A stretch of DNA of 64,000 nucleotides, taken from positions 8,198 through 72,197 of the forward strand of contig DAOTGT010000001.1 of the NCBI GenBank assembly GCA_035447285.1, written 5' to 3'. Numbering within the stretch: the stretch's first letter is position 1; the number at the start of each line of letters is the position of its first letter. Position numbers and translations under genes: made by a program. This document shows, piece by piece, positions 9,051-39,320 of this stretch. Source of the stretch: Candidatus Competibacter sp. Its GTDB lineage: Bacteria; Pseudomonadota; Gammaproteobacteria; Competibacterales; Competibacteraceae. A model generated the notes under the pieces. It did not search any database. It was not told where the DNA came from and saw nothing but the letters and a program-made list of their open reading frames with translations.

Positions 9051-10262
9051 TCAAAAGACGCCCTGACCCTTTAGCGTCGCCAGTTCCGCCGCGCTCAGAC
9101 CCAGCAACCCACCGAACACTTCCATATTATGGCTGCCAATCTCCGGCCCCGGCCAACTGGTCGCGCCAGGTGTTTCCGCCAGCTTCGGAATAATGGCTGG
9201 GATTTTCAGTGGCTTGCCGTCGATCTCCACCGTCTCGAACAAGCCCCTCGCCAGAAAATGCGGGTCGGTGACCATATCCGCCACATTGTAAATCGGCCCC
9301 GCTGGTACCTCCGCCGCTTCCAGCCGCGTCAGTGCCTCCCGGCTATCCAGCGTCGCTGTCCAGGCGGTGATCGCCGTGTCGATTTCTTGCTGATGATCGA
9401 CCCGGCCGGCGTTACCGGCCAGTCTTGGGTCTTCGGCTAGATCCGCTCGCCCAGCGGCATGCATCAACCGCTTGTAAATCGAATCGCCGTTACCGCCAAT
9501 GATCACATACTTGCCGTCGCGACAACGATAGGTGCCAGTTGGCACGATGCCGGTCACGGTCGAGCCGGACGGCTCGCGGATCGCGCCGGCGCCGTCGTAT
9601 TCCGGCACCACCGCTTCCAGCAGATTGAACACCGACTCGTACAGCGCCACATCCACGGTCTGGCCGGTGTGTGGGGCGCGGCGTTGGCGGTTGAGCAGCG
9701 CCAGCAGCACGCCGAACGCCGCGTGCAGACCGGCGAAGGTATCGCCCAGGCTGAGATTGGGCCGCACTGGCGGCTCGCCGGGCACGCCGTTGACATAGCG
9801 CAGCCCACCGATTCCCTCGCATACCGAGGCGTAACCGGGCCGGGCGGCATAGGGGCCATCCTGCCCGTAACCGGAAATCCGCGCGAAGATCAGCCCCGGA
9901 TTGACCGGCTTCAGATCGTCCGGTCCCAAGCCCCAACCTTCCAGGATGCCGGGACGGAAGTTCTCGATCAGCACGTCGCAGCGTTCCGCTAGTCGTCGGG
10001 CCAGTGCGCGACCGGCGGGATCGCGCAGGTTCAGGGTCACGCATTTCTTGTTGCGGCCCAGACTGCGCCACCACAGCGACGCACCGTCGCGGACGATGCG
10101 CCATTGCCGGATCGGGTCACCGCCCGGCGGCTCGACCTTGATCACCTCGGCGCCGAAATAGGCCAGCAGGGTGCCGGCGAACGGTCCGGCCAGTAACTGA
10201 CCGAGTTCGAGCACGCGGATGCCGTCCAGCGGACGGGGGGCGGCGGTGGGGGCGACGGACAT
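9051..10262 (-). CDS. family III CoA-transferase (CaiB/BaiF type)
   Basis: 403 aa. N-terminal LDGIRVLELGQLLAGPFAGTLLAYFGAEVIKVEPPGGDP, and family-typical blocks throughout. Confidence 0.9.
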   Translation of the reverse strand: MSVAPTAAPRPLDGIRVLELGQLLAGPFAGTLLAYFGAEVIKVEPPGGDPIRQWRIVRDGASLWWRSLGRNKKCVTLNLRDPAGRALARRLAERCDVLIENFRPGILEGWGLGPDDLKPVNPGLIFARISGYGQDGPYAARPGYASVCEGIGGLRYVNGVPGEPPVRPNLSLGDTFAGLHAAFGVLLALLNRQRRAPHTGQTVDVALYESVFNLLEAVVPEYDGAGAIREPSGSTVTGIVPTGTYRCRDGKYVIIGGNGDSIYKRLMHAAGRADLAEDPRLAGNAGRVDHQQEIDTAITAWTATLDSREALTRLEAAEVPAGPIYNVADMVTDPHFLARGLFETVEIDGKPLKIPAIIPKLAETPGATSWPGPEIGSHNMEVFGGLLGLSAAELATLKGQGVF

Positions 10263-26040: not shown

Positions 26041-26529
26041 ATGGCTGATGCATTTTTGAAAATTGGCGACGTGAAGGGCGAGTGCAAGGACCACGAGTTC
26101 AAGGAATGGATTGAGGTGCTGAGCTGGAGCTGGGGCGCTAGCCAGATGGGTACCGCCGGGCATGGTACCGGCTTGGGCGCCAGCAAGGTACAGATGCAGG
26201 ATTTCAGCTACACCATGCACTTCTGCGCCGCTTCGCCCGAACTACTGCTGTCGTGCTGCTCGGGTCATCACTACCCCGAGGCTACCCTGGTGATGCGCAA
26301 GCCGACCGGCAAGGACGGTGGGCAGAAGAAGTTCCTGGAGTTCAAGTTCAAGGACGTGATCGTCAGCAGCTACCAGACCGGCGGCAGCGATGGTGCTGGC
26401 CTGCCGATCGAGAGCCTGTCGCTGAACTTCACCAACATGACCCAGGAGTACTTCACCCAGGATGAGAAGGGTGCGACCAAATCGGCCGGCAAGGCCGGTT
26501 GGGATGTCAAGACCAACAAGAAGGTCTGA
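26041..26529 (+). CDS. hcp: T6SS tube protein Hcp (TssD)
   Basis: 162 aa. MADAFLKIGDVKGECKDHEFKEWIEVLSWSWG is a typical Hcp N-terminus. A GAGAGGA RBS precedes the start. Confidence 0.95.
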   Translation: MADAFLKIGDVKGECKDHEFKEWIEVLSWSWGASQMGTAGHGTGLGASKVQMQDFSYTMHFCAASPELLLSCCSGHHYPEATLVMRKPTGKDGGQKKFLEFKFKDVIVSSYQTGGSDGAGLPIESLSLNFTNMTQEYFTQDEKGATKSAGKAGWDVKTNKKV

Positions 26530-30856: not shown

Positions 30857-30994
30857 GGTGAAGGGTTAAAGGCCAGGGGTTAAAGGTGAGCGCGGTAAAG
30901 GGCCGAAGGCCGGCCGGCGACCTCCTCGCCTGACCCAGGCTCTAGTCCTTGGCCTCGTCTGTTGACCTGTCAATGCCGCTGGGAGTCTGAACCT

Positions 30995-33679
30995 ATGGCC
31001 GAAATCAGTCGCGTCACCGCATTCGGTAAGCTGAATAGTCTGGGCTATAAAGCCATCGAAAGCGCCACCGTTTTCTGCAAGCTGCGCGGTAATCCTTATG
31101 TGGAACTGGTGCACTGGTTGCATCAAATCCTGCAATTACAGGATTCAGACCTGCACCGAATCATCCAACACTTCAGCTTGAATCCGTCGCGGCTGGCCAA
31201 GGATTTCACCGAGGCACTGGACCGGTTGCCGCGCGGCTCAACTTCAGTTTCCGATCTATCCTCCCATGTCGATGCGGCGGTGGAAAACGGCTGGGTGTGC
31301 GCGACCCTGATGTTCAAGGACAGCCAAGTGCGCACCGGGCACCTGCTGGTCGGGATGTTGCGGACACCGGACTTGCGCAACGTGTTGTTGGCCATCTCGC
31401 GCGAATTCGACAAGATCAAACTGGACGAACTGGGCGACCGGTTTAACGATATCGTCGCCGCCTCGCCGGAAACCGGGTTGCGCGCCTCGGATGGATCTCA
31501 GGTCGGTGGTGGCGCGGCGCCCGGCGAGGCCAGCGAAGCCGTGGCGCCAGCACAGATGGGCAAACAGGAAGCCTTGCAACGCTTTTCGGTGGATCTGACC
31601 GAGCGGGCGCGCAAGGGCGAACTGGATCCCATCGTCGGCCGCGACGAGGAAATCCGCCAGATCGTCGATATTCTGATGCGCCGCCGCCAGAACAACCCGA
31701 TCCTGACCGGCGAGGCCGGCGTGGGCAAGACGGCGGTGGTGGAGGGGTTCGCTCAGCGCATCGCGTCCGGGGATGTGCCGCCGCCGCTCAAGGACGTGAC
31801 GTTGCGGGTGCTGGATGTGGGTCTGCTGCAAGCCGGTGCCAGCATGAAAGGCGAGTTCGAGAACCGGCTTCGGCAAGTGATCGACGAAGTGCAATCCTCC
31901 CCCAAGCCGATCATTTTGTTCATCGACGAGGCGCACACTCTGATTGGCGCGGGTGGCGCGGCCGGCACCGGTGACGCCGCCAACCTGCTCAAGCCAGCGT
32001 TGGCGCGCGGTAAATTGCGCACCATCGCCGCCACTACTTGGGCCGAGTACAAGAAGCATATCGAGAAAGACCCCGCACTGACCCGCCGCTTTCAGGTGGT
32101 GCAGGTCGGCGAGCCCAGCGAGGAAAAAACCATCCTGATGATGCGTGGCATGGCTTCGACCATGGAGCAACATCACCGGGTGCTGATTCTCGACGAGGCG
32201 CTGGAGGTGGCGGTCAAGCTGTCGCATCGCTACATCCCGGCCCGGCAGTTGCCGGATAAGGCAGTCAGCCTGCTGGATACCGCCAGCGCCCGGGTGGCGA
32301 TCAGTCTGCACGCGGTGCCGGCCGAGGTCGAGGACTGCCGCCGCCGCATCGAAGGGCTGAACACCGAACTGGAAATTATCGGCCGCGAAACGGCGGTCGG
32401 TATCGATACCGCTCAGCGTCAGGCCGATGCCACCGAGAAATTGCAAGCCGAGCAGCTGCGACTGGGAGAACTGGAGGCCCGTTGGCAGGAAGAAAAAGGC
32501 GTGGTCGATCAGATCCTGGAGCTGCGCGCCAAGTTGCGCGGTGACGGTGGCGCGGTCGATACCGCCGCCGTGGCCGAACCCGATCCAGAACGGCAGACTT
32601 GGTTGGCGGAGCTGAAGGATCTCCAAGGCCGATTGCACGAATTGCAGGGCGAAACGCCGCTGATCCTACCCAGCGTGGACGCTCAGGCGGTGGCGTCGGT
32701 GGTCGCCGACTGGACCGGCATTCCGGTCGGGCGCATGGTCAAGAACGAAATCGAAACCGTGCTCAAGCTGGCCGACATCATCAACCGCCGCATCATCGGC
32801 CAGCGTCATGCCCTGGACATGATTGCCCGGCGGATTCAGACCTCGCGCGCCGCATTGGACAACCCCAGCAAGCCGATTGGCGTGTTCATGCTGGCCGGCC
32901 CGTCCGGGGTGGGCAAAACCGAGACAGCGCTGGCGCTGGCCGAGGCGCTGTACGGCGGCGAGCAGAACGTCATCACCATCAACATGAGCGAGTTCCAGGA
33001 AGCGCACACCGTTTCCACTCTCAAGGGCGCGCCGCCCGGCTACGTCGGTTACGGTGAGGGTGGGGTATTGACCGAGGCAGTGCGCCGCCGGCCCTACAGC
33101 GTGGTGCTGCTGGACGAGGTGGAAAAGGCCCATCACGACGTGCACGAAATCTTCTTCCAGGTGTTCGACAAGGGGTGGATGGAAGACGGCGAAGGGCGGC
33201 ACATCGATTTCAAGAACACCCTGATCCTGCTCACCACCAACGTCGGTACCGATTTGATCATGGGCATGTGCAAGGACCCGGATTTGTTGCCCGATCCCGA
33301 TGGCTTGGCCAAGGCACTGCGGGAACCTTTGCTCAAGGTGTTTCCGCCGGCGCTGCTGGGGCGATTGGTGACGATTCCCTATTACCCGCTCAGTGACGAG
33401 ATGATCGGCGATATCGTGCGCCTGCAACTGGGGCGGATTCAGAAACGGGTTTTGGCAAACCACAAGGTTCCGTTCGACTACGACGACGAGGTGGTGAAGC
33501 TGATCGTCAGCCGCTGCACGGAGCTTGAGAGTGGCGGGCGGATGGTGGACGCCATTTTGACCAACACCGTGTTGCCCGCGATCAGCCAAGAATTTTTGAA
33601 TCGGATGGTGGAAGGCCAGCCGGTTTCGCGGGTGCGGATTAAGGTCGTGGATGGCGAGTTTGGTTTCGAGTTCGAGTGA
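30995..33679 (+). CDS. clpV: T6SS AAA+ ATPase ClpV (TssH)
   Basis: A Clp N-domain is followed by two AAA+ modules (GEAGVGKTAVVEG..., GPSGVGKTETALALAE...). A GGGAG RBS precedes the ATG at 30995. Listed ORF 30962 is over-extended. Confidence 0.97.
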   Translation: MAEISRVTAFGKLNSLGYKAIESATVFCKLRGNPYVELVHWLHQILQLQDSDLHRIIQHFSLNPSRLAKDFTEALDRLPRGSTSVSDLSSHVDAAVENGWVCATLMFKDSQVRTGHLLVGMLRTPDLRNVLLAISREFDKIKLDELGDRFNDIVAASPETGLRASDGSQVGGGAAPGEASEAVAPAQMGKQEALQRFSVDLTERARKGELDPIVGRDEEIRQIVDILMRRRQNNPILTGEAGVGKTAVVEGFAQRIASGDVPPPLKDVTLRVLDVGLLQAGASMKGEFENRLRQVIDEVQSSPKPIILFIDEAHTLIGAGGAAGTGDAANLLKPALARGKLRTIAATTWAEYKKHIEKDPALTRRFQVVQVGEPSEEKTILMMRGMASTMEQHHRVLILDEALEVAVKLSHRYIPARQLPDKAVSLLDTASARVAISLHAVPAEVEDCRRRIEGLNTELEIIGRETAVGIDTAQRQADATEKLQAEQLRLGELEARWQEEKGVVDQILELRAKLRGDGGAVDTAAVAEPDPERQTWLAELKDLQGRLHELQGETPLILPSVDAQAVASVVADWTGIPVGRMVKNEIETVLKLADIINRRIIGQRHALDMIARRIQTSRAALDNPSKPIGVFMLAGPSGVGKTETALALAEALYGGEQNVITINMSEFQEAHTVSTLKGAPPGYVGYGEGGVLTEAVRRRPYSVVLLDEVEKAHHDVHEIFFQVFDKGWMEDGEGRHIDFKNTLILLTTNVGTDLIMGMCKDPDLLPDPDGLAKALREPLLKVFPPALLGRLVTIPYYPLSDEMIGDIVRLQLGRIQKRVLANHKVPFDYDDEVVKLIVSRCTELESGGRMVDAILTNTVLPAISQEFLNRMVEGQPVSRVRIKVVDGEFGFEFE

Positions 33680-33697
33680 GAGGAGCAGGCTGAAATG

Positions 33698-33750
33698 AAC
33701 CGGTCCAGAATGAATCCCTGTCGTTTATTCTGGACCGGTTATCGATTTTT
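33698..33750 (+). terminator. stem-loop / intrinsic terminator after clpV
   Basis: A 14-bp perfect stem, AACCGGTCCAGAAT (33698..33711) with ATTCTGGACCGGTT (33727..33740), is followed by ATCGATTTTTAT. Confidence 0.65.
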
Positions 33751-33880
33751 ATGTGGTTGGTTGGCATGAAAATATCGTGTTGGATAGGGACTGGATTGAA
33801 TTGGTATTGATCGTGCGTATTCCGAATGTGAGATTGGTGATTCATGTATTAAAGTAGCGATCAATCAAGGGGAACTTATT

Positions 33881-34414
33881 ATGGTAACTCTGGGATTTTA
33901 TGTTGGGGGCGTATCGGCGTCCTTGCTTGGGGCTACGGAGGATTCAGCGTTCGCACACGTGGTAGTGGGGCACTTCAAGTCCAGCACATTCTATTTCAAT
34001 ACATGTGGCGAAGTCATGAAGAGTGGTGACACTGGATTTGGTAAATTACAGAATAAAATCCTCCACTACGGCTGGATGAGCTGCAACACCCAGGTGAATG
34101 GAGTCAACCTTGCCCTTGATAAGGAAGGAAGGGCGCTGCCGCTGAACTTGGTCGGTAAGTTCATCGAAATCAAGGTCGATTGCGGTACAACGTTCGCTAG
34201 TTGGGAGCGTGTAAATACGGTGTTTAAAGTGACCGAGATGGGGAAAGATGGCAACAAAGGAAAGGTGCTTTTCGAGTTTGATGGAATGATGAAAATCTGG
34301 GCGGGAAAAATGAGCTCTGATGTTGAAATCTCGGGTGTGCTCAAGCCACTTACGGGCAAGGTGGCAGAGAACGTAGCCCTACAAGTCATCAATGCCGATG
34401 CGTCTAGGCTCTAG
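33881..34414 (+). CDS. hypothetical protein (no recognisable domain)
   Basis: A 177-aa ORF in a clearly AT-richer islet. No convincing signal peptide or lipobox. The composition looks beta-rich. AT-rich codon usage differs from the neighbours. Confidence 0.55.
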   Translation: MVTLGFYVGGVSASLLGATEDSAFAHVVVGHFKSSTFYFNTCGEVMKSGDTGFGKLQNKILHYGWMSCNTQVNGVNLALDKEGRALPLNLVGKFIEIKVDCGTTFASWERVNTVFKVTEMGKDGNKGKVLFEFDGMMKIWAGKMSSDVEISGVLKPLTGKVAENVALQVINADASRL

Positions 34415-34476
34415 CATAGAGCGGCGGTTTTTTTGTTTGAGCCTTGAATAAAACCGACGCCGAGGAATAAAAAATC

Positions 34477-35151
34477 ATGATGCAAGCCCATGATTTTGAG
34501 CTTTTTGACAGCAATCAGCAGTCCTGTACCGTCATATTCAAATGGACCGGTGTCTACGCGGGATTTTTCAAGAATGACCGGTTGTTCGACAGGTTTGGAC
34601 GTTATCTGGGCTGGTGCGATGCCCAAGGTTCCGTGTGGAAGTATGACGGAGAATGGCTCGGTCATGTCGTTGAACAGAATTACTTAGCGCGCGACCTGCG
34701 GGCGTTGTCCCAGCGGCGACCGCCCCAGGTGCCCCCGGTACCGGCTCAGCCGCCGATGCCACCCACGCCGCGAGTAGCGCGGGCAGTACGGCCGAACTGT
34801 TGCGACCCACTGGAAGCTTTGCTGCGGATGCCGGCGTCGGAGGAATTGATTGGCGAGTGGTGTTCCGACGATGAAATCCTGCGGTTGAGCGAGGACGGCT
34901 CTTTTCAGTGGACGGCGATGGAATCGGCAACGGATGCCGTTGGCCGCTGGGAATTACGCGGGCAGGAGTTGCTCCTGTGCTGGGAAGGCGTCGTGGAGCC
35001 GGAACGAACCTATTGGGTGATCGAATTCAGCGGGGATTCGCTGTTGCTGCGCTGGATGAGAAAAACTGGCCGAAGCTTGCCCTTGTGGTTGCATCGCCGG
35101 GCTGTTCAACCGGACATCCGGGACGACGCCGATGAATCGCAAGCAACGTAG
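34477..35151 (+). CDS. hypothetical protein: N-terminal beta-hairpin repeat region, Pro-rich linker, C-terminal lipocalin-like region
   Basis: 224 aa. The N-terminus LFDRFGRYLGWCDAQGSVWKYDGEWLGHVVEQNYLAR resembles the repeated D-x-x-G-x-x-L-G hairpins of so-called 4-fold beta-flower proteins. It is followed by PPQVPPVPAQPPMPPTP and a GxW-rich C-terminal domain. This is recollection only. Confidence 0.55.
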   Translation: MMQAHDFELFDSNQQSCTVIFKWTGVYAGFFKNDRLFDRFGRYLGWCDAQGSVWKYDGEWLGHVVEQNYLARDLRALSQRRPPQVPPVPAQPPMPPTPRVARAVRPNCCDPLEALLRMPASEELIGEWCSDDEILRLSEDGSFQWTAMESATDAVGRWELRGQELLLCWEGVVEPERTYWVIEFSGDSLLLRWMRKTGRSLPLWLHRRAVQPDIRDDADESQAT

Positions 35152-36481
35152 GGCGCTCAGCGGCGCGGCGCGGCCGGATGCTCCCGCCAGCGAAGCACGA
35201 CGGGTCGAGCAGGCGATTGCCCTGCACCGGCAGGGGCAACTTGGTGCGGCGGAAGCGCTTTATCGCCAGATGCTGCGCCGGAATCCGCGGCAGGTCGACG
35301 CCCTGCATTTTCTGGGGGTGCTCGCCGCGCAGCGGCATGAAAACGACGGCGCCGTCAAGCTGATCCGCCAAGCGCTCGAACTGAACCCACGCTATGCGGA
35401 CGCCCATAACAACCTGGGCAACGTGCTGGCCGCCATGGAGCAATTCGATGAGGCAGCGGCGGCCTATCGCCAAACCATCGAGTTGGCTCCCGGCAATCTC
35501 GGCGCTCGCTGCAACCTCGGCGTGATGCTGCGGCGATCCGGTCGGTTTGAGGACGCGGTGGTTGCCTGTCAGCAGACGCTTGCCCTGAAACCGCGACTGG
35601 CGGAGGTTCATCTCAATTTGGGCAAGGCGCTGGTCGAGCTGGAACGCCATGAAGAAGCGATGGCCGCGTTCCGCGAGGCGATTCGCCTGCGACCCGGCCA
35701 TGCGTCCGCTTACAAGAGTCTGGGCATGCTGTTGTACCGGCTCAATCGTAGCGAGGAAGCCGCCGAGCTGTTTCGGGGTTGGCTGGAGCAAGACCCGGCC
35801 AATCCGGTCGCTCGGCATCTGCTGGCGGCCCATTCCGGGCACGCCGCACCAGCCCGGGCGGCGGACGATTATGTCCAGGAACTGTTCGACGGCATGGCCG
35901 ACAGCTTCGACGACCATTTGCATCGGTTGGACTATCGGGCGCCGGACTTGATTGCTGGGGAAATCGGTACGACGCTGGGCATGCCGACCCAGTCGCTGGA
36001 GGTGTTGGATGCCGGTTGCGGTACGGGGCTTTGTGGGCCGCTTTTGCGTCCTTACGCCCGCCGCTTGATCGGAGTCGATTTGTCGCCGCGCATGGTGGAG
36101 CGCGCGCGGACGCGGGGGGATTACGACGAATTGGCGGTCGCGGAGTTGACCGCATTCCTCGCCGCCCGGCCAGCGTCTCATGACCTGATCGTGTCGGCGG
36201 ATACGCTGGTTTATTTTGGCGATCTACGGCCGGTGTTGGCCGCCGCCGCCGCCGCCCTGCGACCCGAGGGTTGGCTGGCGTTTACCGTGGAGCGTGGCGA
36301 GGAGGGAGGAACGGAGGAATTCCGGCTCGATCGCAGCGGTCGCTACCAGCATGCCGAAGCCTATTTGCGCCGAGAACTGGTCCAGGTCGGCATGGTGGTC
36401 GAGACGCTGGAAACCGTGGATTTGCGTTTGGAAGGCGGCCATCCGGTCGTCGGGTTCCTGGTGCTGGCGCGCAAGCCATGA
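35132..36481 (+). CDS. TPR-repeat protein fused to a class I SAM-dependent methyltransferase (COG4976-like), copy 1
   Basis: 449 aa. About 6 TPR units (ALHFLGVLAAQ..., AHNNLGNVLAA...) are followed by the SAM motif I LEVLDAGCGTGLCGPLL and IVSADTLVYFGDL. Confidence 0.85.
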   Translation: MNRKQRRALSGAARPDAPASEARRVEQAIALHRQGQLGAAEALYRQMLRRNPRQVDALHFLGVLAAQRHENDGAVKLIRQALELNPRYADAHNNLGNVLAAMEQFDEAAAAYRQTIELAPGNLGARCNLGVMLRRSGRFEDAVVACQQTLALKPRLAEVHLNLGKALVELERHEEAMAAFREAIRLRPGHASAYKSLGMLLYRLNRSEEAAELFRGWLEQDPANPVARHLLAAHSGHAAPARAADDYVQELFDGMADSFDDHLHRLDYRAPDLIAGEIGTTLGMPTQSLEVLDAGCGTGLCGPLLRPYARRLIGVDLSPRMVERARTRGDYDELAVAELTAFLAARPASHDLIVSADTLVYFGDLRPVLAAAAAALRPEGWLAFTVERGEEGGTEEFRLDRSGRYQHAEAYLRRELVQVGMVVETLETVDLRLEGGHPVVGFLVLARKP

Positions 36482-36530
36482 CCGGCGACGCGAGTGGAAG
36501 CGTGATCGAAGCAAGCTTGAGGAGGTACCT

Positions 36531-37952
36531 GTGAACGGCAATGACGGCAAGTCCAAGGTGTTTGACGACGCTCTGCGATCCACGGTGGTGACCGGATGGT
36601 TTGACCAGGCGATGACGCAGCATCGTCAGGGCAATTTGACCCAGGCGCAGGTCTTTTACCAGCGGGTGCTCGATGCCCAGCCAGATCACCCGGAGGCATT
36701 GAATTTCCTTGGAATTCTCATGCAGCAACGGGGTCAGTCGACTCAAGCGGAACAATTCATTCGTCGGGCCATCCGCAGCACGCCCGATTATGCGGCGGCG
36801 TATACCAATCTGGGCAACGTACTGATCGTCCAGAAGCGCTACGAAGATGCCATCGCCGCCTACCGGCAAGCGACCATTTACAGAGCGGACGAAGTGGAAG
36901 CCTGCGTGAATATGGGCGCGGTGCTCAGGGGGTTGGGGCGGTTGCCGGAAGCGCTGGAGGCGTACCGGCAGGCCAGCGAGCGGCGTCCCGCAAGCGCTGA
37001 AATTCACCACCGCCTCGGTCTGGTGCTGGCCGAGTTGGGACGGTTTGAAGAAGCGATTGTCGCTCAGGAGGCCGCACTGCGCTGCGACGCCGGCCACGAG
37101 GCGGCGATCGAACAGTTGGGTGGTTTGCTGCATCGCATGGGACGCTCCGAGGACGCGCGGATGGTACTGGGCAATGCGGTGTTTCAGTTGGGAGATAGCA
37201 AAGCCGCGCTGAATTTGCTGCAATTCTGGTTGCGGTTGATGCCGGACGATCCGATCGCTCAGCATCGCTTGGCGGCTTGGTTCGGACAAGATCAAGCGCC
37301 AGAGCGCGCTTCCGACGCCTACGTGACTTATCTGTTCGATCGGTATGCGGAAGGGTTCGACCAGCATTTGGTGCAGGAATTGAACTATCAGGCGCCGGCG
37401 GTCATCGCGGAGCGGATCGCCGAAGTGCTGGGTGCGCCCGCTGCCTGTCTGGATGTTCTGGACGCCGGCTGCGGCACTGGTTTGTGCGCGCCGCTGTTGC
37501 ATCCCTATGCCCGTCACTTGGTGGGTGTGGATCTGTCGCCGCGCATGTTGGACAAGGCACGCGAGCGAGGTGATTACGATGAGCTGATCGTCGCCGAGCT
37601 GACCGCGTTTCTGGCGACGCGGCCTCAAGCCTACGACCTGATCGTTTCGGCCGATACGCTGGTGTATTTCGGGGCGTTGGAAGCGGTTTTCGCTGCCGCT
37701 GCCGCTGCCTTGCGCCCTGGTGGCTGGCTGGCGTTTACGGCGGAAGCCGCGACGGGGGATGCGCCGCCGGGCGGATTTCGCATCAATCACAGTGGCCGCT
37801 ATAGCCATGCGGCCGAGTATTTGCGGCAGGTCTTGGCGGAAGTGGGTCTGGAAATTCACTCGATGACGACGGCTACGCTGCGGCGGGAATGCGACCAACC
37901 CATGGTGGGTTATGTGGTGCTAGCCCACCAGCCCGTCGTCACGATCAGCTAA
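36531..37952 (+). CDS. TPR-repeat protein fused to a class I SAM-dependent methyltransferase, copy 2 (paralog of 35132..36481)
   Basis: Same architecture as copy 1 (LDVLDAGCGTGLCAPLL, IVSADTLVYFGAL). A GTG at 36531 is preceded by GAGGAGG. Listed ORF 36216 is over-extended into copy 1. Confidence 0.82.
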   Translation: MNGNDGKSKVFDDALRSTVVTGWFDQAMTQHRQGNLTQAQVFYQRVLDAQPDHPEALNFLGILMQQRGQSTQAEQFIRRAIRSTPDYAAAYTNLGNVLIVQKRYEDAIAAYRQATIYRADEVEACVNMGAVLRGLGRLPEALEAYRQASERRPASAEIHHRLGLVLAELGRFEEAIVAQEAALRCDAGHEAAIEQLGGLLHRMGRSEDARMVLGNAVFQLGDSKAALNLLQFWLRLMPDDPIAQHRLAAWFGQDQAPERASDAYVTYLFDRYAEGFDQHLVQELNYQAPAVIAERIAEVLGAPAACLDVLDAGCGTGLCAPLLHPYARHLVGVDLSPRMLDKARERGDYDELIVAELTAFLATRPQAYDLIVSADTLVYFGALEAVFAAAAAALRPGGWLAFTAEAATGDAPPGGFRINHSGRYSHAAEYLRQVLAEVGLEIHSMTTATLRRECDQPMVGYVVLAHQPVVTIS

Positions 37953-37999
37953 CTGCTGGATTCTTGTCGTCGGCAAGGCTATCTTGACAAGCTCTCGGC

Positions 38000-38036
38000 G
38001 CGCGCGGCGGCCGGCGACCCGCCGGCCGCCGCGCGC
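38000..38036 (+). terminator. 17-bp perfect GC palindrome hairpin after the second TPR-methyltransferase gene
   Basis: GCGCGCGGCGGCCGGCG-acc-CGCCGGCCGCCGCGCGC, followed by TGCCCTTTTCCC. Confidence 0.6.
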
Positions 38037-38065
38037 TGCCCTTTTCCCATCCCGAGGAGGCGGTC

Positions 38066-38326
38066 TTGATGGTCGAGTTCGATGACGTGCGACAGTTGGT
38101 CGGCGAAATATTGCAGTTGGGAGATCGGGTCACCCGGCTCGGCCCGGATACGCCGCTGCTGGGGAGCATCCCGGAGTTCGACTCGATGACGGTGGTCACC
38201 TTGATCCATGCTCTGGAGCAGCAGTTCGATATTCAGGTTGCCGACGACGAGATTAGCGCCGAGAGCTTCGAAACCTTGGGCAAGGTTCACGAATTCGTCC
38301 GCGACAAAGCTACGGCGAGGAGTTGA
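38066..38326 (+). CDS. acyl/peptidyl carrier protein-like (phosphopantetheine-binding)
   Basis: 86 aa. LGSIPEFDSMTVVTLIHALEQQF contains the carrier-protein (D/E)-F-D-S-(L/M) serine motif at the start of helix 2. A GAGGAGG RBS precedes the start. Confidence 0.7.
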   Translation: MMVEFDDVRQLVGEILQLGDRVTRLGPDTPLLGSIPEFDSMTVVTLIHALEQQFDIQVADDEISAESFETLGKVHEFVRDKATARS

Positions 38327-39320
38327 GGATCGTTGTTGCCGCCGGGCGGGCGGCGGACCCATTCCACTGTGTCGCTAGAAACTCGGGAAGCCTTTGTTCC
38401 AGCCAATATTCCGCTCGCCACGGCCAGCGCCCGGCAACGAAGCCGACATGGCCGCCTCGCGAGCTGAGTTCCATCTGTACGCAAGGCGACAGTTCGCTGG
38501 CGTCCGGCACCGCTTCCGGCCGCATGAAAGGGTCGTCCAGGGCATGCAGGATGAGTGTTGGCACACGGATACGTCGCAGGTAAGGGCGGCAACTGGCTTG
38601 GGCGTAGTAATCGTGAACGCCGGCATAACCGTGCAAGGGCGCGGTGATCCGGTCGTCGAAGGTATGGAAATCTCGCAGCGTCGTCAGTTCGTCCAAGGGT
38701 ACGGGCGCATCCGAGCGATGCCGGAATTTGTTGCGGTAGCTCGTTTTCAGCGCACGCAACAGGTGTGCTTGATAAAGCCGCGAAAAACCCTGATTCAGTC
38801 GCCGCGCGGTGATATCGAGTAGGAATGGAACCGATACCGCCGCCGCTGCATGTAAGGGGTTGTCGGTCCCGGTTTCTCCCAGCCACTTGAGCAGGGCGTT
38901 GCCGCCCAGCGAGTAGCCGATGGCGGCCAGGGGTGTGGTCGCTTCCTTTTGGCGCAGCCAGGTTGCCACATGGTCGATGTCGGCGGTATCGGCGGCGCAG
39001 TAGCCGCGCGCCAGCCGGTTGGGCTGGCCACCGCGACCGCGAAAGTGCATTACCACCGCCCGCCATCTGCGGCGGGCGATGGCCGCCAGTAGGCCAAGCG
39101 CATAATGAGAAGCGCTGGAGCCTTCCAGACCGTGCAGGATCAGTACGATCGGTCCCCGTCCACTAGGAAGCCAATCTAAATCCAGAAAGTCGCCGTCGGG
39201 CAATTCCAGACGTTCGCGCCGTAGGGGCACCCGAGGTCGGCGTCGACACAGCACCGGCCACAGCGTTTGAGCGTGCGGGCCGGGCAACCACCATGCCGGG
39301 TCATAGTCAGCGGGTTGCAT
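38310..39320 (-). CDS. alpha/beta-fold hydrolase (YheT-like)
   Basis: 336 aa. Blocks LPGPHAQTLWP and ILHGLEGSS, the nucleophile elbow IGYSLGGN, and a C-terminal GGHVGF. Confidence 0.85.
   Translation of the reverse strand: MQPADYDPAWWLPGPHAQTLWPVLCRRRPRVPLRRERLELPDGDFLDLDWLPSGRGPIVLILHGLEGSSASHYALGLLAAIARRRWRAVVMHFRGRGGQPNRLARGYCAADTADIDHVATWLRQKEATTPLAAIGYSLGGNALLKWLGETGTDNPLHAAAAVSVPFLLDITARRLNQGFSRLYQAHLLRALKTSYRNKFRHRSDAPVPLDELTTLRDFHTFDDRITAPLHGYAGVHDYYAQASCRPYLRRIRVPTLILHALDDPFMRPEAVPDASELSPCVQMELSSRGGHVGFVAGRWPWRAEYWLEQRLPEFLATQWNGSAARPAATTILNSSP

Follow-up and report, generated by a model that had tools for sequence, protein, structure and literature searches.

Downstream of clpV, the last core gene of a type VI secretion system (T6SS) cluster in Candidatus Competibacter sp., two adjacent open reading frames (ORFs), ORF1 and ORF2, occupy a position where vgrG and effector genes might have been expected. 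Both lie in a 64-kb window (the whole stretch of DNA analysed, 64,000 nt of contig DAOTGT010000001.1, to which all coordinates refer). From comparisons of related loci, the DNA running from the clpV terminator to the ORF2 start is very probably a replaceable cassette slot, with ORF2 outside it. The evidence tips slightly toward this slot being a hotspot for T6SS cargo of the effector-immunity kind. The combined statement, namely a cassette slot that acts as a T6SS cargo hotspot, with ORF1 as candidate cargo and ORF2 outside, is given a probability of roughly 45%. The original prediction had named both genes as the best cargo candidates in the window on account of their position and the compositional break; this stands for the variable slot after clpV, for the different genes that sister genomes carry there and for ORF1 as a positional candidate, but not for ORF2, which is conserved at every locus.

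A variable slot between clpV and ORF2

The slot was compared by following ORF2 homologues into their contigs, all from Competibacteraceae, where clpV and ORF2 orthologues flank it. At least seven states are found between ~90%-identical clpV and ORF2 orthologues. The intervening DNA varies by lineage, while ClpV keeps 89–95% identity and ORF2, one or more TPR-methyltransferase genes and an acyl carrier protein (ACP) gene stay syntenic. First, the slot is empty (32 or 105 nt) in loci L013/14 and L029-31. Second, it holds ORF1 in the window and in L011/12. Third, in L007/9/10 it encodes a PG_binding_1 plus calpain-type Peptidase_C2 protein (E = 1.9e-14 for the latter), followed by a 126/149-aa protein with a hydrophobic N-terminus. 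Fourth, a 157/158-aa HExxH protein precedes a 145-aa signal-peptide protein in two lineages, L026-28 and L036/37/39 (79% and 58% identity). Fifth, L025 carries a 158-aa signal-peptide protein and then a weakly LysM-like 295-aa protein. Sixth, in L035 a Peptidase_M15_4 protein is followed by 96- and 212-aa ORFs, and seventh, L016-19 contain a 164-aa protein of unknown family. Slot GC content is below that of the flanks in most genomes. A putative enzyme of the cell-wall-directed or peptidase kind is encoded in four of the six occupied states, three of which add a small exported protein. Within the L035 cassette (L035:3909-5941), the Peptidase_M15_4 protein has an N-terminal region that is 29% identical, over 90 aa, to C-terminal sequence of the 212-aa protein encoded two genes downstream, and the shared region may be a targeting or interaction domain.

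The strong hairpin noted earlier after clpV is confirmed by folding (-30.5 kcal/mol, z = -4.3, with 0 of 200 shuffles folding as well). Its arms have 17–18 paired bases each and are 94% complementary, with a loop of 7–9 nt and a T-run behind them; it is the clpV terminator, and its sequence is not found as a repeated element within the window. L007 and L011 keep the hairpin, though its loop differs, and L013, where ORF2 begins 32 nt after clpV, lacks it. DNA homology to L007 ends shortly past the hairpin and picks up at 34481, at the ORF2 start codon. Because homology stops past the clpV terminator and resumes at the ORF2 start, ORF1 appears to be a strain-specific occupant of the slot and ORF2 its conserved right anchor (Table 1).

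The drop in GC content reported after the hairpin was also found, at 0.45–0.49 across ~33550-34600 compared with ~0.63 in the flanks. The cassette itself has a z-score of -3.0 against 600-nt windows and is the sole strongly low-GC segment between 10 and 64 kb. As a compositional islet, the proposal holds for ORF1 with its flanking non-coding DNA; it fails for ORF2, in which the first third has a lower GC in every genome, as a feature of the beta-flower domain. On these sequence characters, the ORF1 cassette is a putatively horizontally acquired, low-GC single gene. A 14-nt direct repeat is present at 34455-34468 (CGACGCCGAGGAAT), just 5’ of the ORF2 start, and at 35124-35137 (CGACGCCGATGAAT), across the start codon of the first TPR-methyltransferase gene; it is probably due to chance.

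Comparison with the closest metagenome-assembled genomes (MAGs), L011/L012, suggests how the slot may be exchanged. Only two substitutions separate them from the window over ~33830-35000 (~1.2 kb, comprising ORF1 and most of ORF2), while the flanks are 4–5% divergent, and the synonymous divergence (dS) of ORF1 is 0.011 compared with 0.17 for clpV. A near-identical ~1.2 kb within divergent flanks, together with an ORF1 dS far below that of clpV, points to a recent homologous-recombination tract that would have brought in ORF1 together with most of ORF2; more generally, cassettes would be swapped by homologous recombination through the conserved flanks. The adjoining segment 35001-35250, which spans the ORF2 3’ end and the 5’ end of the first TPR-methyltransferase gene, is 15% divergent from L011/L012 and probably marks a recombination breakpoint or is mosaic. 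Exchange by an integron or an integrase was rejected, as the window contains no tRNA and no integrase, the cassette has no flanking direct or inverted repeats, and plasmid records and viral contigs hold no relatives of ORF1 or ORF2. Phage genome records likewise hold none of ORF1, and no Rfam family was found in 33400-35400.

ORF1 and ORF2 had been regarded as a pair. They are adjacent on the same strand with a gap of 62 nt, both fall in the near-identical tract common to L011, and they share a short motif, GRxLP[LF]xL. However, ORF2 is present at every locus whatever the slot holds: it accompanies six other slot states, empty slots included. At other loci, homologues of ORF1 occur without ORF2 beside them; between the two genes lies a terminator-like hairpin, and the motif match is not significant (probability 1.5%). 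Since ORF2 is independent of slot content, overlaps a TPR-methyltransferase gene and evolves at the rate of that gene, a functional pair of either effector-immunity or effector-adaptor type is highly improbable. The motif lies at aa 83-90 of ORF1 (34127-34150) and aa 198-205 of ORF2 (35068-35091), is the most conserved stretch in both otherwise unrelated families and does not occur in the other slot proteins; the similarity, which hhalign scores at 1.5% probability, could be due to chance or to a docking motif common to both.

Table 1. Coordinates of the features in and around the slot
Feature	Position	Strand	Remarks
T6SS cluster	12665-33679		all core genes present except tssJ, vgrG and PAAR
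clpV (tssH)	30962..33679	+	left anchor of the slot; ATG at 30995 probably the orthologous start
clpV intrinsic-terminator hairpin and T-run	33698..33750 (hairpin 33698..33740)	+	left edge of the variable slot
Variable low-GC cassette (ORF1 leader, ORF1, ORF1 terminator)	33741..34476	+	GC 0.465
ORF1	33881..34414	+	177 aa, 19.1 kDa, soluble, predicted all-beta
Short terminator-like hairpin and T-run	34408..34432	+	overlaps the ORF1 stop codon
ORF2	34477..35151	+	224 aa, acidic, cytoplasmic; right anchor of the slot
TPR + class-I S-adenosylmethionine (SAM) methyltransferase gene 1	35132..36481	+	start overlaps the ORF2 end by 20 nt
TPR + SAM methyltransferase gene 2	36531..37952	+	paralogue of gene 1; orthologous start GTG at 36531, mechanical ORF from 36216
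Stand-alone acyl-carrier-like protein (PP-binding) gene	38066..38326	+	downstream of the ORF2/TPR-methyltransferase genes in all long loci

ORF1 as candidate cargo

ORF1 is preceded by a Shine-Dalgarno-like sequence 5’ of its ATG and has its own terminator. It had been described as having no recognisable domain or lipobox, and this is borne out: Pfam, NCBIfam (E up to 1), PADLOC and PHROGs return nothing, a profile search of the PDB gives no match at E up to 10, and neither a transmembrane segment nor a lipobox is present. The family is very small. A word-indexed search of 5.8 billion clusters contains four, an exhaustive profile search of 1.84 billion representatives yields six true relatives and one spurious repeat protein, and a broader profile raises the total to about 11 clusters, with members 29–82% identical to ORF1. 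Genome and metagenome scans with the closer alignment recover, besides known loci, only NZ_SPMZ01000002.1 (Candidatus Competibacter phosphatis strain SBR_G, 100% match to ORF1). ORF1 is a real gene under selection, because 20 residues, including D50, C68, T70, D80, G83, R84, P87, K93 and D147, are invariant in a family as divergent as this (eight full-length sequences, alignment A4, identity down to 29%).

Three possible relationships were rejected by hhalign: ORF1 as a divergent Hcp (probability 0.2% against the Hcp alignment of the locus), as a relative of ORF2 (1.5%) and as a relative of the 164-aa slot protein (0.05%). In L011 and L012 (8001-8615 of each), the ORF1 copy lacks a single base at each of two sites (window positions 34318 and 34333), which puts the last ~30 codons out of frame; it may be a pseudogene or reflect long-read homopolymer errors, and these MAGs and their sisters have several further split genes.

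The slot is read as a T6SS cargo hotspot because of the layouts that combine an enzyme with an exported small protein, and because of its position at the end of a T6SS operon. Periplasm-acting T6SS effectors that are small, carried by Hcp1 and matched by periplasmic immunity proteins are exemplified by Tse1/Tsi1 and Tse3/Tsi3 of the Pseudomonas aeruginosa H1-T6SS (HSI-I). The present cluster has the same gene order as the H1-T6SS, pppA-tagF-tssM-L-K-tagH and tssA-B-C-hcp-tagJ-tssE-F-G-clpV, and slots of the sister genomes encode a putative cell-wall enzyme next to a small exported protein, as for Tse1/Tsi1 and Tse3/Tsi3. At 19 kDa, ORF1 falls within the size range of cargo for the Hcp lumen. 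However, unlike in the H1-T6SS, the gene that closes the slot encodes a beta-flower protein and is neither vgrG nor hcp, and clpV is not followed by vgrG; unlike Tse1 and Tse3, ORF1 has neither an immunity partner nor a recognisable catalytic domain.

Slot position, foreign composition and a size compatible with the Hcp lumen all speak for ORF1 as cargo. In that role it would be a small soluble T6SS substrate carried inside the Hcp tube, and because no cognate immunity gene is present, it would act on non-kin targets (e.g. eukaryotic grazers) or be harmless to the producer. On the sequence evidence, secretion of ORF1 by the T6SS is conceivable but doubtful. Variable effector islands linked to T6SS are already known; what distinguishes this slot is the absence of a nearby vgrG, an ultra-rare ORF1 and a boundary formed by a beta-flower/lipocalin-like protein.

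Several observations weigh against a cargo role. ORF1 follows clpV in the window and L011/L012, but its distant homologues are lone genes, and no T6SS gene is seen on their 1–6 kb contigs (L001-6, L020-23, L024). They are found variously among HDOD/HD response regulators with an insertion sequence fragment, beside rpiB/msrPQ, and with an HTH-cupin regulator and LysE. Homologues predominantly in genomes lacking a T6SS, which the original prediction had named as evidence against itself, are partly approached by these lone genes on short contigs. In none of its contexts does ORF1 have a conserved partner gene, and no immunity-like gene lies beside it. Pfam and NCBIfam reveal no MIX, FIX, PAAR, Rhs, Tae/Tge/Tle or other toxin marker in ORF1. 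Its AlphaFold2 (AF2) model, built from four sequences, is unusable (pLDDT 38.9), and Foldseek with this poor model returned noise only (best E = 0.33, TM-score below 0.25), so that no fold is assigned. ORF1 is bracketed by terminators and insulated from the T6SS operon, and co-regulation is not evident. Some of the slot domain calls that suggest effectors are weak (PG_binding_1 reaches 22.1 of the 23 bits required, the LysM match has E = 0.022, and HExxH is a bare motif), and the signal peptides of slot proteins were read by eye.

Part of this evidence would be expected if ORF1 were an unrelated passenger, a rare drifting gene (possibly of defence or stress function) in a recombination-tolerant gap after a strong terminator, its adjacency to clpV being meaningless. 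Its homologues occur singly in four distinct settings, each with a GC below that of the host contig, and one lies amid gene fragments and a transposase remnant; ORF1 itself is flanked by terminators on both sides and has no T6SS marker. Yet the same gap repeatedly holds pairs of an enzyme and an exported protein, which are typical of T6SS effector-immunity modules and which a neutral landing pad would not predict, and ORF1 has no phage, plasmid or defence-system match. A passenger is a possible explanation, though not the one we would choose. If it is correct, the finding shrinks to an ordinary recombination hotspot.

Orphan immunity genes beside secretion loci are established in T6SS and contact-dependent inhibition (CDI) biology, and ORF1 could be such a gene, a protective cytoplasmic protein against a competitor toxin that has been kept beside the T6SS without its effector. 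That ORF1 is single and partnerless in every context, and that it is small, soluble and under purifying selection, would fit. However, an effector-like gene is never adjacent to it, searches of Pfam, NCBIfam and the PDB reveal no similarity to known immunity families, and the ORF1 family is far rarer than typical orphan-immunity families. We consider this improbable.

If the slot is a true cargo hotspot, it provides a positional rule for finding new effector and immunity families, which is to read whatever separates clpV from the beta-flower gene. These families would come from glycogen-accumulating Competibacter, a wastewater lineage that is uncultured but of industrial importance, and two wholly new candidates would be ORF1 and the 164-aa protein.

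ORF2 and the methyltransferase/ACP group

ORF2 had been described as an orphan built from beta-hairpin repeats, a Pro-rich linker and a lipocalin-like C-terminus. This architecture is supported by Pfam, AF2 and Foldseek, but the protein is not an orphan, since its N-terminus (aa 20-100) belongs to the recognised family Pfam PF21784 (Bflower, 4-fold beta-flower) with 31.4 bits against a cut-off of 25. PF21784 is found in 28 of the 29 ORF2 family members (best E 1.1e-8). The AF2 model from 29 sequences is confident (pLDDT 84.1, pTM 0.70). It comprises ~8 short strands at aa 17-73 (seven DSSP strands of at least 3 residues and a short bridge, with pLDDT above 90), an ordered Pro-rich segment at aa 80-110 (pLDDT 82–89) and a C-terminal all-beta domain. 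The motif [DNEQ]xxG recurs at the hairpin tips as DRFG38, DAQG48 and EWLG59; the resemblance to a 4-fold flower was judged from strands and motifs. ORF2 has a pI of 4.9 and a Shine-Dalgarno-like sequence 5’ of its ATG, and it lacks a signal peptide, a transmembrane segment and a lipoprotein signal.

The C-terminus of ORF2 is lipocalin-like at the fold level only, as judged from the model. All top Foldseek matches in the PDB are lipocalin-like (4gzv, 4i95, 3hty, 8ehd (potempin E) and 5jk2 (Treponema Tp0751)), with probability 1.00, E of about 1e-3 to 3e-2 and TM-scores by target of 0.47–0.64, and a viral structure library returned the same kind of match only. By sequence the domain does not belong to a lipocalin-like Pfam family (Lipocalin_4 appears in one of 29 members, E = 0.18), and PDB profile matches to fatty-acid-binding proteins are weak (E = 0.46–0.97). 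Identity to the lipocalin-like PDB proteins is 9–19%, and most of these are lipoproteins that are exported; ORF2 carries no signal peptide.

The PF21784 fold, which came to light in AlphaFold models and is without an assigned function, has four hairpin ‘petals’ built from eight short antiparallel strands, with semi-conserved [DNEQ]xxG motifs at the tips (Durairaj et al. 2023, PMC10584680). One PF21784 protein, Cernunnos, is encoded by a single-gene integron cassette of Vibrio cholerae and confers phage resistance (bioRxiv 10.1101/2024.07.02.601686). A literature search found nothing published on its mechanism. ORF2 resembles the beta-flower family, to which Cernunnos belongs, in Pfam score, strands and hairpin-tip motifs. 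However, its flower is fused to a Pro-rich segment and a lipocalin-like barrel, without a lipoprotein signal, and unlike Cernunnos it is encoded by a vertically conserved chromosomal gene of one bacterial family and not by a mobile cassette. Neither ORF1 nor ORF2 matches PADLOC-DB at E up to 1, in a version (PADLOC v2.0.0, 2023) that predates the Cernunnos report, and PHROGs contains no match for either.

Several features tie ORF2 to the genes that follow it. The 20-nt overlap with the first TPR-methyltransferase gene recurs in five locus groups (L007, L011, L013, L026 and L029). The ratio of nonsynonymous to synonymous substitution (dN/dS) is 0.15–0.24 for ORF2 and 0.20–0.27 for the TPR-methyltransferases, compared with 0.03–0.07 for clpV, and identity to L013 is ~53% for ORF2, ~62% for the TPR-methyltransferase and ~90% for clpV. 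Given the overlap, a dN/dS and divergence like those of the methyltransferase, and the terminators between clpV and ORF2, the latter would be the opening gene of a group formed by ORF2, one to three TPR-methyltransferase genes (the range of copy numbers in relatives) and the ACP gene. The lipocalin-like barrel and the Tubby-clan flower in the model suggest binding of a hydrophobic or acyl ligand. Most likely, ORF2 would handle such a ligand together with the overlapping TPR-methyltransferase and the ACP, rather than act as a partner of ORF1. Beyond the ACP gene lie glgB and, convergent on the opposite strand, an alpha/beta-hydrolase gene. The methyltransferases show weak BioC-like similarity, and the TPR-methyltransferases, ACP and alpha/beta-hydrolase (35132-39320) recall BioC/BioH-type handling of methyl-esterified acyl-ACP as an uncharacterised conserved group.

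T6SS adaptors and chaperones (Tap/Tec with DUF4123, Eag with DUF1795, and DUF2169 proteins) co-vary with their effector and adjoin vgrG or PAAR. Like them, ORF2 is conserved, small, cytoplasmic and encoded right beside variable cargo genes, and it might instead be an unrecognised T6SS accessory, a generic cargo-loading or ClpV-associated factor outside the methyltransferase/ACP group. In every locus group whose upstream DNA shows the neighbour, which means all except L016-19, it is found downstream of clpV, and it stays with clpV both where tssF/G are not adjacent (L029) and where no TPR-methyltransferase gene follows (L025). It also borders a variable cargo slot, as adaptor genes often do. 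In contrast to adaptors, however, ORF2 and its 28 relatives give no match to DUF4123, DUF1795 or DUF2169 (Bflower alone is found), and, unlike the effector-specific adaptors known so far, ORF2 stays constant through complete replacement of the cargo. It overlaps the TPR-methyltransferase start and evolves at the rate of that gene and not of clpV; in L019 the gene preceding the 164-aa slot ORF encodes a DUF11 protein on the minus strand and is not clpV; and the evidence for an accessory is limited to one bacterial family. An accessory role is unlikely. Less likely still is a scheme in which Competibacteraceae T6SS clusters lacking vgrG after clpV rely on this slot as a dedicated cargo site and the beta-flower protein ORF2 passes slot proteins generically to ClpV/Hcp, with ORF1 founding a novel-fold effector family that lacks immunity genes; such a scheme would provide a first cellular role for the beta-flower fold.

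Three observations about ORF2 count against the overall proposal. Since a single bacterial family supplies every ORF2 homologue, the synteny of clpV and ORF2 is no independent evidence of function. In L025 the TPR-methyltransferase gene does not follow ORF2. In L029 (1-13255; also L030 and L031), the block of clpV, ORF2, three TPR-methyltransferase genes and ACP does not lie beside tssF/G. Its neighbours there are ftsW-like, PALP and TRAM-methyltransferase genes, and its clpV is 95% identical to a T6SS-embedded copy. Because the block adjoins these genes in the L029 lineage, it can be separated from the T6SS core. Whatever its role, ORF2 gives the beta-flower fold a reproducible neighbourhood, with clpV upstream and TPR-methyltransferases and ACP downstream, and makes concrete experiments possible.

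The T6SS cluster and the wider window

Upstream of the islet, the T6SS genes are arranged in Pseudomonas H1-like order, with pppA, tagF, tssM, tssL, tssK and tagH on the minus strand and tssA, tssB, tssC, hcp, tagJ, tssE, tssF, tssG and clpV on the plus strand. Gene identification agrees with the earlier description of an H1-like T6SS without vgrG after clpV. No vgrG, PAAR or tssJ was found among the ORFs of the whole window; since no window ORF matches VgrG or PAAR, the spike genes must sit elsewhere in the genome. The gap between tssK and tagH is only 112 nt, at the position where H1 clusters carry tssJ. ClpV is 89–99% identical in protein sequence to the L011, L013, L029 and L025 copies. 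The product of hcp (26041-26529) is apparently a divergent Hcp, scoring 39.2 bits against the NCBIfam Hcp1 cut-off of 58.9, and its sister-locus orthologues are recorded with Pfam T6SS_HCP. A literature search found no paper linking Competibacter to type VI secretion.

Other genes in the window encode glycosyltransferases, a pilin and housekeeping functions. A second low-GC region, with a minimum GC of 0.40, occupies positions 1-9300. It contains a 251-aa ORF without a Pfam match alongside genes for UDP-galactopyranose mutase, several glycosyltransferases, a 629-aa TPR protein and a type IV pilin, and it is a typical variable surface-structure locus (polysaccharide/pilin).

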